Positions 27,147 to 33,104 are shown, numbered from the stretch's first letter. The stretch: 64,000 nucleotides of DNA from Oligoflexales bacterium (GCA_965215515.1 OZ244057.1:1984001-2048000); one strand, 5' to 3'. The notes: generated from the sequence alone by a model not told the origin. Made by a program: numbers and translations.

Positions 27147-28340
27147 CTAGTCCAACACTTCCGCCACCACTCCCGCACCGACCGTGCGTCCGCCCTCGCG
27201 CAGGGCGAAACGTAGCTCCTTATCCATCGCAATCGGTGTAATGAGATCGACTTCCATGTCGATGTTGTCGCCAGGCATAACCATCTCAACGTTATCAGGC
27301 AACTTGATAATACCTGTCACGTCCGTGGTGCGAAAATAAAATTGCGGACGATACCCCTTGAAGAAGGGTGTGTGTCTGCCACCCTCCTCCTTGGTCAACA
27401 CATATACCTGCGCCTTGAATTTACGATGCGGCGTAATCGCACTAGGCTTGGACAGCACCTGTCCACGGAAAACTTCGTCCCGCTTCGTGCCGCGCAGTAG
27501 CACTCCCACGTTGTCACCCGCCCGCCCCTCGTCGAGCAGTTTGCGAAACATCTCTACCCCTGTGCAGGTAGTTTTGCTCGTTTCCTTGATCCCGACAATC
27601 TCAATCTCATCACCGACCTTGACAATACCCCTCTCAATCCTACCCGTGACTACCGTACCCCGTCCAGAAATAGAAAACACATCCTCGATAGGCATCAAGA
27701 AATCCAAATCAATAGGACGATCAGGAACAGGAATATAGTCGTCGCAAGCTTTGACCAACTCAAAAATAGCCTTGCAATCGTCACTATCGATGTTGTCGGA
27801 TTCGAGCGCTTTCAAAGCCGACCCCTTGACAATAGGGGTATCGTCGCCAGGGAACTTGTACTCACTGAGCAGTTCCCGCACCTCCATCTCCACTAAATCA
27901 AGCAACTCGGCATCGTCTACCATGTCAACCTTGTTGAGGAAGACTACAATCTTGGGCACACCTACCTGACGCGCCAACAAAATATGCTCCCGCGTCTGTG
28001 GCATCGGCCCGTCCGCCGCACTCACCACCAACACCGCACCATCCATCTGCGCGGCACCCGTAATCATGTTCTTCACATAGTCGGCATGACCAGGACAGTC
28101 AACGTGTGCATAATGGCGCTGCTCCGACTCATACTCGACATGCGAGGTCGAAATCGTAATTCCCCGCTCCTTCTCCTCAGGAGCCTTGTCAATCTCCTCG
28201 AACGCTAACGCCTGCCCACCGAATTTCTTCGACAATATCTTGGTAATCGCTGCCGTCAACGTCGTCTTGCCATGATCGACGTGACCGATCGTACCGACAT
28301 TAACATGCGGCTTGTTGCGCTCGAATTTCTCCTTCGCCAT
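27147..28340 (-). CDS. tuf: Elongation factor Tu
   Basis: [38 protein letters not shown]. Confidence 0.99.
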
Positions 28341-28443
28341 CCCTGACCTCCACGGTTAAACTAAAACCCACACCGAAAATATCCCGACTCGCCAGCCGTC
28401 ATACCCCACAACAAAGAAATTGACAACAACAGCCTCTCCGTTA

Positions 28444-28515
28444 AGCCTGAGATGGGATTTGAACCCATGGCCTCATCCTTACCAAGGATGTGCTCTACCC
28501 CTGAGCTACACAGGC
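28444..28515 (-). tRNA. tRNA-Thr(GGT)
   Basis: Cloverleaf; anticodon arm CATCC-TTGGTAA-GGATG; GTTCAAAT T-loop; CCA not encoded. Confidence 0.95.
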
Positions 28516-28800
28516 CCAGCACACATACACACAAAGCGGAAGACGGGGATCGAACCCGCTACGCTCGCCTCTCCGCCGCTTCCTCGCTCCGCTTGGAAGA
28601 CCGATGCCCCCCAGCACACATACACACAAAGCGGAAGACGGGGATCGAACCCGCTGCGCTCGCCTCTCCGCCGCTTCCTCGCTCCGCTTGGAAGACCGAT
28701 GCCCCCCAGCACACATACACACAAAGCGGAAGACGGGGATCGAACCCGCTACCCTCGCCTCTCCGCCGCTTCCTCGCTCCGCTTGGAAGACCGATGCCCC
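28516..28800 (-). repeat. Three tandem 95-bp tRNA-Gly-derived repeat units
   Basis: Units start at 28516, 28611 and 28706; the next period (28801) runs into the real tRNA-Gly; each unit is a 19-nt spacer plus a 76-nt tRNA-Gly-like segment. Confidence 0.95.
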
Positions 28801-28819
28801 CCAGCACACATACACACAA

Positions 28820-28892
28820 AGCGGAAGACGGGGATCGAACCCGCTACCCTCAGCTTGGAAGGCTGATGCTCTACCAGATGAGCTACTTCCGC
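28820..28892 (-). tRNA. tRNA-Gly(TCC)
   Basis: GCGGAAG...CTTCCGCT acceptor stem; anticodon TCC; GGTTCGATCC. Confidence 0.96.
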
Positions 28893-28919
28893 ACAACCCA
28901 CACACAAGCCTAGCAAGCA

Positions 28920-29002
28920 TGGAGGGAGATGGATTTGAACCATCGAAGGCTAACGCCAACGGGTTTACAGCCCGTCTCCTTTGGCCACTCGGACACCCCT
29001 CC
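28920..29002 (-). tRNA. tRNA-Tyr(GTA)
   Basis: Anticodon arm ACGGG-CTGTAAA-CCCGT; long variable arm. Confidence 0.96.
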
Positions 29003-29016
29003 GTGACAGAACACAG

Positions 29017-29089
29017 AGCTGGCGATGGGACTTGAACCCGCAACCTGCTGATTACAAGTCAGCTGCTCTACCAGTTGAGCTACGCCAGC
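29017..29089 (-). tRNA. tRNA-Thr(TGT)
   Basis: GCTGGCG acceptor stem; anticodon arm GCTGA-CTTGTAA-TCAGC. Confidence 0.96.
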
Positions 29090-29130
29090 CTAACAGACAC
29101 AACCCCCTGCGGCTAGGAAGTCACCGAAAA

Positions 29131-29159
29131 GTTATGACCGAATGACAATCTCATGTCAA
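29131..29159 (-). promoter_or_regulatory. Putative sigma70 promoter of the tRNA-tuf operon
   Basis: Minus strand TTGACA-N17-CATAAC about 40 nt upstream of tRNA-Thr(TGT). Confidence 0.5.
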
Positions 29160-29163
29160 CAAC

Positions 29164-29856
29164 TTAACTCCCAGAACAACTGTGCTGCTGCAAAAAAATC
29201 GCCGCGGCCGCCGACACATTCAACGACTGCAACCTCCCTCGTCGCTCACTCACCCCTCCCTCAATGCACAACAGGCGATCACACTGTGCCCGTACCGCAG
29301 GCGATATCCCCCTGCCTTCCGCACCAAACACCAACACCTGCTGGGCAAAGAAACCACTGTCCCGCAAACTTTCCCCCACCATATCCGCACCCACTACCCA
29401 GAAACCACGCTTCTTTAAATTCACCAACGTGCGCGCCAAATTAGTCACCAAAAAAAGATCCAACAACGCAAAACCACCCCGCGCCGCATTAACCACCGCC
29501 GCAGTCAAACCAACCTGCCGCCGCCGCGCCACCACCACACCCCGCACCCCAAAGAAAGCCGCCGAACGCACCACCGCACCGAGATTATGAGGATCGACAA
29601 CATGATCGAGCGCTACCAACACACGGCCCAACCTGCCCGCCCCCAGCACCGCGTACAACTCACTCTCATAGCGCGGCGTAAGCCTCAACTCCGCCACCAC
29701 CCTCTTGCCAGCCTGACCCCGCACCGCGACATCCCGATCCGACAAGCCACGCAAGCGCGCCACCAAACGCGGCGGACAGCCGACCTCTACCACCACCTGC
29801 GGACGATGACGTAGATACTCCGCAACATGCCGCTCGCCCTCAATGGTAAACTTCAC
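29164..29856 (-). CDS. TrmH/SpoU-family RNA methyltransferase (RlmB-like)
   Basis: DPHNLGAVVRSAAFFG, FGAEGRGI, SLNVSAAAAI; GTG start overlaps the upstream stop (GTGA). Confidence 0.9.
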   Translation of the reverse strand: MKFTIEGERHVAEYLRHRPQVVVEVGCPPRLVARLRGLSDRDVAVRGQAGKRVVAELRLTPRYESELYAVLGAGRLGRVLVALDHVVDPHNLGAVVRSAAFFGVRGVVVARRRQVGLTAAVVNAARGGFALLDLFLVTNLARTLVNLKKRGFWVVGADMVGESLRDSGFFAQQVLVFGAEGRGISPAVRAQCDRLLCIEGGVSERRGRLQSLNVSAAAAIFLQQHSCSGS

Positions 29857-31755: not shown

Positions 31756-32658
31756 ATGGCGATGGCGATGACCGATGTCTTCACCAGTGAAAATTTTACC
31801 GCATTTATTCCTGCCTTCAAAGCCCACCTCGCGATACGGGGATGTAGTGGGGCGACTGTCGACTCCTACAGCAGCGATGTGCGGTTATTTTTGCAGTTCA
31901 TGCATGCCAGACAGCTGAGCAGCGAAGATCTAGATGCGAGTACTTTGCACGCCTATTGTGATTTTCTTCAGACCGACAGTGCTCGACACGAAAACTCCCA
32001 GCGTCGTAAGATAATTGCCATTCGTCAGTTTTTCACCTTCTTGACGGACGACGCTACCCTGACCGACAACCCGTTTGAGAAAGCTATCATCCCCGTACGA
32101 GATGACACGCTGCATTACGAGCTGCAGAGCGACAAGCTCACCCAGCTGCTAACTGCATTGGCAAAACGTGCGGACACGCAAAGTGTGCGCAACCTCGCCC
32201 TTATCAATCTGCTGGCTTTCGAGGGGCTTAAGGCTAGCGAGCTGGTCGCCTTGCGTTGGCAAGATTTCGTGCCCAGCCCCCGCGGGGCGCTGCTCCGTAT
32301 CGGAGGTAACCGTCAGCGGGTCATAAACCTACAACCAGCAACCGTCGCAGGCTTACGCCAGTGGCAGCGCGTGGCGCGACAACGTCATCCTCAACTCGAC
32401 ACACGGCTCATGTTTGGAGGTTTCAAGGGGCCTGAAGGGGCTTTGCCGCTCGCCACCCTGACCCGTCACGGGCTGAAATTTATCCTCGCTCAGCTCGCCG
32501 TCCAAGCCGATATTCCTTCGTTAACCCCCGCCCTGCTGCGTCACCATGCGACAAGACACATGTTGCTACAAGGCAAGAGCATCACCGACAGCATGGCACA
32601 CCTCGGTCTCAGGCGCACAGGCAACGTTCGTCAACATCTCCTGCAACTTCAGCGGTGA
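31756..32658 (+). CDS. XerC/XerD-like tyrosine recombinase homologue with degenerate active site
   Basis: SAM-like N-domain (TVDSYSSDV, AIRQFFTFL, DNPF); box I GLKASEL; box II TPALLRH...LGL; no C-terminal catalytic Tyr. Confidence 0.85.
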   Translation: MAMAMTDVFTSENFTAFIPAFKAHLAIRGCSGATVDSYSSDVRLFLQFMHARQLSSEDLDASTLHAYCDFLQTDSARHENSQRRKIIAIRQFFTFLTDDATLTDNPFEKAIIPVRDDTLHYELQSDKLTQLLTALAKRADTQSVRNLALINLLAFEGLKASELVALRWQDFVPSPRGALLRIGGNRQRVINLQPATVAGLRQWQRVARQRHPQLDTRLMFGGFKGPEGALPLATLTRHGLKFILAQLAVQADIPSLTPALLRHHATRHMLLQGKSITDSMAHLGLRRTGNVRQHLLQLQR

Positions 32659-33104
32659 ACGACGACACACACTACATGGAAACCGCCCTGCAAGCCGCCG
32701 CAGAGGCTGCGCCGCGCGGCGAAGTTCCCGTCGGTGCGGTGTTGGTGCGCCACCACAACATCATCGCAACCGCGGCAAATGCCAAAGAAACCCAACGGGA
32801 TGCCACTTGCCACGCCGAGATGCTCGCCATCCGCGCGGCTAGTCGCCACCTGCAGGCATGGCGTTTGCTCGACACTACGCTTTACGTGACCCTCGAACCG
32901 TGCTTAATGTGCAGCGGGGCGATCTATCAAGCTCGCATCGCCCGCGTCGTCTTTGCCGCCCGCGATCGACGTTACGGTGCGCTCCAGTGGATACAAGCGC
33001 GCCAGCACGAGCTGGGCAATCACCGCCTCACGTTGCAACACGGCATCTGCGCCGAGGCTAGCAGCGCACTGCTGCGTGCCTTTTTCCAGGGGAAACGTCC
33101 GTAA
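32655..33104 (+). CDS. tadA: tRNA adenosine(34) deaminase
   Basis: EVPVGAV, HAEMLAI, TLYVTLEPCLMC. Confidence 0.9.
   Translation: MNDDTHYMETALQAAAEAAPRGEVPVGAVLVRHHNIIATAANAKETQRDATCHAEMLAIRAASRHLQAWRLLDTTLYVTLEPCLMCSGAIYQARIARVVFAARDRRYGALQWIQARQHELGNHRLTLQHGICAEASSALLRAFFQGKRP

Follow-up and report, generated by a model that had tools for sequence, protein, structure and literature searches.

The tRNA-tuf operon of an Oligoflexales bacterium carries a tandem array of three 95-nt units between an intact tRNA-Gly(UCC) gene (glyT) and the downstream tRNA-Thr(GGU) gene. With a probability of roughly 75%, we consider these units to be partial copies of glyT, which arose by local duplication, mini-repeat insertion and amplification, and which are probably inert rather than an RNA gene. 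The purine-rich 24-nt insert present in each unit is a member of a mini-repeat family that has spread within the genus. Throughout, “the window” denotes the whole stretch of 64,000 nt that was analyzed, and plain coordinates refer to it; G000 is this genome (2.18 Mb, single contig), and G001 and G002 are sister species of the same genus.

The operon lies on the minus strand downstream of a terminator-like hairpin (29200-29216, minus strand). In transcript sense, the gene order is tRNA-Thr(UGU) (29016-29089), tRNA-Tyr(GUA) (28920-29002), tRNA-Gly(UCC) (28820-28892), the three 95-nt units, tRNA-Thr(GGU) (28443-28516) and tuf, which codes for EF-Tu (27147-28340; Pfam GTP_EFTU, D2 and D3). The four tRNA genes are called by ARAGORN and match the Rfam tRNA model (RF00005) with 68.3, 54.7, 68.3 and 69.9 bits, respectively, the last match spanning 28444-28515. 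tRNA-Gly(UCC) is single-copy in the genome, and the sole other glycine tRNA among the 35 tRNA genes called by ARAGORN is GCC. Promoter-like or terminator-like sites were not found inside the array, and therefore, the units are presumably co-transcribed with the operon.

The region 28516-28892 (minus strand) comprises the intact tRNA-Gly(UCC) gene and the array, whose units are 98-99% alike. Each unit is composed of a 19-nt spacer (TTGTGTGTATGTGTGCTGG), 20 nt resembling tRNA-Gly positions 21-40, the 24-nt insert (GGAGCGAGGAAGCGGCGGAGAGGC) and 32 nt representing tRNA-Gly positions 42-73. In unit 1 (28725-28819) these four parts are located at 28801-28819, 28781-28800, 28757-28780 and 28725-28756, in unit 2 (28630-28724) at 28706-28724, 28686-28705, 28662-28685 and 28630-28661, and in unit 3 (28535-28629) at 28611-28629, 28591-28610, 28567-28590 and 28535-28566, all on the minus strand. 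The 19-nt Gly-Thr spacer is present a fourth time at 28516-28534 (minus strand), where it ends in CTGG. This sequence is a genuine spacer; its homologue in G001 begins with TTGTG and finishes with GCTGG.

The 5' part agrees with tRNA-Gly 21-40 at 16 of 20 positions and differs at the remaining four, and the 3' part matches tRNA-Gly 42-73 at 32/32 (unit 1), 30/32 (unit 2) and 31/32 positions (unit 3). The units are distinguished at one or two positions, all of which, as read from the assembly, fall within the motif GGGTA, which is GCGCA in unit 2 and GCGTA in unit 3. Tandem Repeats Finder reports a period of 95, 3.5 copies, 98% matches and a score of 653 at 28515-28851, and a repeat of such length and identity cannot be due to chance. 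A block of 304 nt covering the array has no second occurrence in the 2.18-Mb genome, and among the 35 tRNA genes partial copies elsewhere exist for tRNA-Gly(UCC) only. The pseudo-tRNA-Gly array described in the initial annotation was thus borne out in all details checked, and alignment of the units upheld its statement that they differ at one or two positions.

A tandem repeat in a metagenome-type, single-contig genome might be an assembly artefact, i.e., the stutter of a single unit. Logan unitigs were inspected for three runs, each from a different sample of a single study, which may be the source study; they contain a fraction of 0.82-0.83 of the sampled words, and the RNA runs listed contain 0.09 at most. 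In each of the three runs, the 52-nt unitig common to the units exceeds the unique flanks in depth by a factor of about three (24.8 versus 7.0-7.5, 155 versus 43-57, and 106.6 versus 32-37). The copy number in the reads is therefore about three in 3/3 runs. The short-read unitigs do break at the repeat, as expected of short-word graphs, and in the aligned contigs the depth bins 28561-28676 are zero, from which nothing is concluded. Run X5, which belongs to a different study, yields only fragments that are 90-95% alike, plus a 261-nt skip; these fragments are read as tRNA-Gly of another organism. Given the threefold depth, the positions that distinguish the units and an analogous structure in the sister species G002 (see below), an artefact appears extremely improbable.

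The 24-nt insert belongs to a mini-repeat family with the core GAGCNAGNAAGCGGC. In G000 the exact 24-mer is restricted to the three units, and 7 or 72 sites are found if up to 4 or up to 6 mismatches are allowed, respectively. A genome search for the insert had been proposed at the outset; the exact sequence turned out to be private to the array, but the diverged copies form a genome-wide mini-repeat that had escaped the first reading. The 82 occurrences of the strict core in G000 group into 29 clusters, 10 of which lie in sense orientation within long reading frames, 4 in antisense orientation and 15 in intergenic regions or at gene edges. Tandem arrays of the mini-repeat show periods of 18, 27, 29, 39, 41 or 57 and comprise up to 13 copies. 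Within the genus, the core is counted 82 times in G000 and 489 and 315 times in the other two members, compared to zero in a sister genus as well as in another family; a reversed control pattern is absent from all five genomes. Searching one genome each of 185,579 species with a two-copy core pattern retrieved 77 stretches, of which 74 are located in two Oligoflexales bacterium MAG chromosomes of this genus and the remaining three are single stray matches.

Several conserved protein-coding genes of G000 harbour the mini-repeat in frame. Arrays are found in genes for a DapD-type succinyltransferase (10 x 13 residues; G000:C1:350296-351768), a fused NuoC-NuoD protein (NuoCD; G000:C1:1527331-1529265), a fusion of a VTT domain and a pyridine-nucleotide-disulphide oxidoreductase (G000:C1:2097893-2100292) and a ComEC-type protein (G000:C1:563063-564670), and further in-frame insertions affect a 4HBT thioesterase, LptF/LptG and a large DnaJ-domain protein. 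In none of the six frames do the 39-nt units within genes contain a stop codon. The insertions in DapD, NuoCD, ComEC, the thioesterase and LptF are missing at the orthologous site in both G001 and G002 (5/5), and also in G003 at those sites for which an orthologue was found there. For a sixth insertion, in the oxidoreductase, G002 has a single copy, and a decayed remnant is left in G001. The family is therefore young and has continued spreading after the species split. The protein-gene insertions aligned are not accompanied by a long target duplication.

Further repeats were noticed in the same genome. Seven 41-nt mini-repeat units in antisense orientation directly follow the 3' end of tRNA-Val(GAC) (G000:C1:1759048-1759418). 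A hairpin-capable composite, about 75 nt long and containing two inverted cores, is present at G000:C1:1528523-1528644, 2098975-2099082, 1202778-1202852 and 2091751-2091807; its copies within NuoCD and the oxidoreductase are in frame and read ...AAFSNARLLARS.... Tandem repeats of 12 nt with related sequence (GCAGGGTATCGA, CCTTGCTCGATA and others) occur at many loci, e.g., 544145-544305 and 2063587-2063715, and runs of TGGCGT-type hexamers are likewise present; in all, there are 123 tandem-repeat regions per 2.18 Mb. Repeats of GTTTCAATCCACGCTCCCGCATGGGGAGCGAC with dissimilar stretches between them (G000:C1:825254-825619) look like a CRISPR array.

The Thr-Tyr-Gly-Thr arrangement is general in the order (41 genomes), and 30 operon loci were compared, 28 of which contain both tRNA-Gly and tRNA-Thr(GGU). 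The Gly-Thr spacer measures 303 nt in G000, 242 nt in G002, 26 nt in G001 and 4-149 nt at the other 25 loci. Partial tRNA-Gly copies are confined to G000 and G002 (2/30 loci); the Gly-Thr spacer of G001 holds neither units nor tRNA-Gly fragments. In G002 the fragments represent tRNA-Gly 1-19, located upstream of the intact gene, 16-40, present twice, and 57-73; none of them includes the 5' half of the T-arm, and each adjoins a purine-rich motif resembling the 24-nt insert. In G001 the Tyr-Gly spacer bears two to three copies of the motif, which are flanked by a duplicated 23-nt stretch of the spacer. Mini-repeat arrays of about 300 nt with periods of 22, 38 and 44 were also observed in this species directly upstream of the tRNA-tuf operon (G001, L005 1180-1479). 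Accordingly, the mini-repeat has entered the tRNA-tuf operon of all three species at differing sites: the Gly-Thr spacer in G000, the Tyr-Gly spacer and the upstream region in G001, and both spacers in G002.

The units themselves are not conserved across the genus members. Such an absence of conservation in relatives had been named in the initial annotation as a finding that would refute its proposals, and it is what the loci display, G001 being devoid of units and G002 possessing differently broken fragments. In both G000 and G002, the insertion nevertheless follows tRNA position 40 and the start falls in the D-loop, which could mean that an old structure has been retained and that the units are not junk. 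The tRNA-derived parts of both species carry the letters of the respective species' own tRNA, including a compensatory pair in the acceptor stem. Own letters together with shared sites require that the events were recent and independent but favoured one spot, or else that an old structure has been kept alike by gene conversion. The three species are nearly equidistant, with identities of 85.1%, 86.2% and 87.0% over five protein segments (about 1,575 aligned residues). Amid the debris, each species retains just one whole tRNA-Gly(UCC) gene, presumably because loss of the last intact copy would be eliminated.

The units might also be functional small RNAs, i.e., minihelix-like, T-arm-bearing molecules that are glycylated or titrate GlyRS, RNase P, EF-Tu or a tRNA-targeting toxin. 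In every unit the T-arm is intact and both the 3' acceptor strand and U73 are preserved, the operon would normally be strongly expressed, and in the predicted optimum fold the insert pairs with CUUCCGCU. Yet ARAGORN, run with default settings or with introns allowed, calls none of the three units and reports the four true tRNAs only. The Rfam tRNA model does not match the units either (28300-29250, E up to 10); two of them produce tRNA-Sec matches only, at 17.6 and 16.4 bits (E 1.7 and 3.4), far below the gathering score of 47. The predicted folds of the 95-nt units (-34.4 to -36.2 kcal/mol) are no more stable than those of shuffled sequences (z -0.28, +0.55 and +0.43; 200 shuffles each), compared to a z-score of -2.58 for the intact tRNA-Gly. 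Moreover, the optimum folds are unlike among the units, and the T-arm is broken in that of unit 1.

A weak cloverleaf of 91 nt per unit, labelled “tRNA-Leu(caa)”, is drawn by ARAGORN if thresholds are relaxed to 80%. This structure recruits the spacer sequence GUGUAUG as 5' acceptor strand with 5/7 pairs, and its energy is -11.9 kcal/mol versus -34.4 to -36.2 kcal/mol for the optimum. Enforcing the acceptor stem and the T-arm yields -22.8 to -25.1 kcal/mol, which is 9.7-13.4 kcal/mol above the optimum, and CCA is not encoded in the units. Hence, the units do not form a cloverleaf above detector thresholds, which defines a functional tRNA gene, and judged by folding and sequence they do not provide the stable coaxial stack of acceptor stem and T-arm with an NCCA end that defines an aminoacylatable minihelix. 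The proposal that the units are processed into minihelix-like RNAs serving as decoys, glycine donors or regulators, for which ARAGORN and folding checks had been suggested, consequently finds no backing in default tRNA calls, excess stability or conservation. Considering also that G001 is without units and G002 with another structure, functional small RNAs are a distinctly improbable explanation.

Alternatively, the array could act in cis as a long structured spacer, which tunes precursor processing, maturation of thrT or the amount of tuf mRNA. Its position between glyT and thrT, upstream of tuf and without a terminator-like site, would suit such a role, and enlarged operon spacers exist in all three species of the genus (303, 242 and 173 nt), compared to Gly-Thr spacers of 4-149 nt in 25 other relatives. 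However, the enlarged spacer differs in position and content among the three species, many unrelated loci have been enlarged by the same mini-repeat, and the structure does not exceed that of shuffles. We therefore deem a role in cis unlikely, and return to the interpretation of the units as partial glyT copies that are probably inert.

The most likely path to the array would comprise three steps. In the first step, a tandem duplication would have extended from the D-loop of glyT through the end of the Gly-Thr spacer, leaving the essential tRNA-Gly(UCC) intact. The junction may have formed at a 4-nt microhomology, since CTGG is shared by the spacer end and the D-loop (TCTGG in tRNA-Gly). In the second step, one period of the mini-repeat would have been inserted behind tRNA position 40 of the redundant copy; the ends of the insertion probably correspond to short matches with the tRNA (AAGC on the left, GTAGCGG on the right), between which a few tRNA letters would have been replaced. 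In the third step, unequal exchange or slippage between identical 51-nt blocks of tRNA 3' part and spacer could have given rise to three 95-nt units. Co-transcribed in the Thr-Tyr-Gly-Thr-tuf precursor, the units would most likely be excised and degraded as spacer RNA.

The junctions bear on the second step. On the left side the insert is preceded by CCAAGC, and arrays of the family typically pass from AAGC to GGAGC in each period. On the right side, the sequence is GGCGAGCGTAGCGG in unit 2 and GGCGAGCGCAGCGG in unit 3, and the tRNA itself reads GGGTAGCGG at this position; the right junctions of units 2 and 3 resemble array linkers elsewhere, and also GGCGTAGCGGGG at the right boundary of the LptF insertion. 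These matches are short and as support for an insertion between them are suggestive only. Derivation of tRNA-Gly from the repeat family, or a special likeness to it, was rejected: upon local alignment of the 35 tRNAs with ten array consensus units, tRNA-Gly scores 10, compared to a shuffle mean of 9.6, 147/300 shuffles reach 10, and five other tRNAs score 12. Matches in metagenomes to the junction of tRNA loop and mini-repeat (7 stretches) contain neither tRNA genes nor repeat cores and are unrelated.

A second composite array of the same build is located at G000:C1:1241562-1242001, where four units of 110 nt end in an intact mnmG gene. Each unit combines a mini-repeat copy with the 5' leader (5'UTR) and the first 20 codons of mnmG (MKHEFNIIVIGAGHAGCEAA). 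At the junction, GCGAAGCGGCA of the gene meets GAAGCGAGAAAGCGACA of the repeat, and another repeat copy is situated just upstream. It is conceivable, and we put this forward tentatively as a minority view, that the mini-repeat is an active, transposase-free “repeat-seeded amplifier”, which copies itself to sites matching the ends of its period in a few letters, e.g., by template switching during replication or repair, and then amplifies together with adjacent host sequence. If so, the pseudo-tRNA-Gly array and the array of mnmG 5' ends would be two captured intermediates, and the tRNA-tuf operon, which is heavily transcribed, would serve as a hot spot struck independently in all three species. 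Insertions such as the 10 x 13 residues of DapD could then arise in proteins, and novel spacers in RNA, without a dedicated enzyme.

Known mobile-element mechanisms were considered as drivers. The units might be scars of site-specific integration and excision, i.e., att-site duplications at the 3' half of glyT. Partial 3' copies beside an intact tRNA gene are described as the usual trace of an integrase (PMC9897764), and the window holds a tyrosine recombinase gene at 31756-32655. On the other hand, the copies are spaced by 19 nt without an island between them, their D-loop start and internal insert are not products of att duplication, and the neighbours of the operon are housekeeping genes, for a SpoU methylase and EF-Tu. 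The only PF00589 match of the genome is this Xer-like gene, which is followed by tadA. Copies of a tRNA that flank an element with an integrase, the mark of att duplication, are not present here, and scars of this type are very improbable. Of the “att-site-like duplication scars” suggested in the initial annotation, the duplication part is roughly right, as the units are most likely partial glyT copies, and the att-site part fails, as there is neither an island nor an integrase.

The sole PF00589 recombinase lies about 2.7 kb from the operon, and its best NCBIfam matches, XerD/XerC, stay below the cut-offs. A lone Xer-type recombinase, followed here by tadA (31756-33101), may mean that dimer resolution is accomplished by a one-recombinase system. 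Two other candidate drivers were rejected. Retroposition from the operon transcript finds no RVT_1 (PF00078) match in G000, the control being positive in 3/14 genomes. Spread driven by a RAYT is at odds with the occurrence of the Y1 transposase (PF01797) in G000 only, i.e., in one of three repeat-bearing genomes (completeness 91-94%).

The E. coli tyrT operon contains units of about 178 bp, each of which repeats the 3' end of its tRNA as a piece of about 19 nt. One of these tandem units encodes the sRNA rttR (PMC3318445). The array described here resembles the tyrT repeats (rtT) in that tandem units reside directly downstream of a tRNA gene within an operon and each contain a 3' tRNA piece. 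In contrast, the tyrT units are longer with a shorter tRNA piece, and here each unit additionally includes a mini-repeat copy. Furthermore, tyrT gives rise to a stable RNA, whereas the present units are most likely degraded as spacer RNA; the two share no sequence likeness, and an RtT-type Rfam match was not obtained (E up to 10, 28300-29250).

The Rickettsia palindromic elements (RPE) provide a second point of comparison, and insertion of an RPE into an RNA gene does occur. The source describes them as abundant both between genes and in protein-coding regions (PMC1779305). To the extent that RPE are portrayed there, the mini-repeat is similarly a lineage-specific, short, selfish repeat found in intergenic regions and in frame in conserved genes. 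Yet RPE are 100-150 bp long, palindromic and single, while the mini-repeat has non-palindromic units, 18-57 nt in length, of which up to 13 follow one another as direct tandem repeats; the palindrome typical of RPE is not its basic form, and the inverted form of about 75 nt is limited to few loci. With REP/REPIN sequences the mini-repeat shares that it is short, dispersed, intergenic and expanded in a lineage-specific manner. Unlike the REPIN/RAYT pair, its units are mostly direct, and G001 and G002, which lack the Y1 transposase, nonetheless hold 4-6 times more copies. A description of the mini-repeat family or a comparable array was not found in the literature covered, mostly titles and abstract openings.

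As sources of tRNA gene fragments in prokaryotes, integration of mobile elements (attL/attR) and capture of CRISPR spacers are listed, and fragments near an intact gene can mislead tRNA finders at low thresholds, according to the source on tRNA fragments cited above (PMC9897764). The units are akin to such fragments as non-functional partial copies near an intact gene, and relaxed ARAGORN was misled here too. They differ in that no island, integrase or CRISPR array is involved, and in that they form a tandem series, spaced by 19 nt, in which each copy is split by a mini-repeat.

On this comparison of sequences, the array is best classified as tRNA-linked repeats made by an RPE-like mini-repeat. 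It would represent a third route to prokaryotic tRNA gene fragments, besides integrase scars and CRISPR spacers, and fragments of this kind run the risk of being miscalled as tRNA genes at low thresholds. Unless RNA data contradict, the idea that the units represent a novel class of tRNA-derived small RNAs is thereby removed. The mini-repeat reaches beyond protein genes into a core RNA operon, where insertions appear to be tolerated only if the one essential tRNA-Gly(UCC) gene remains intact. The pseudo-tRNA-Gly units and the mnmG array jointly offer a concrete picture of how repeats may carry along neighbouring host sequence during amplification.
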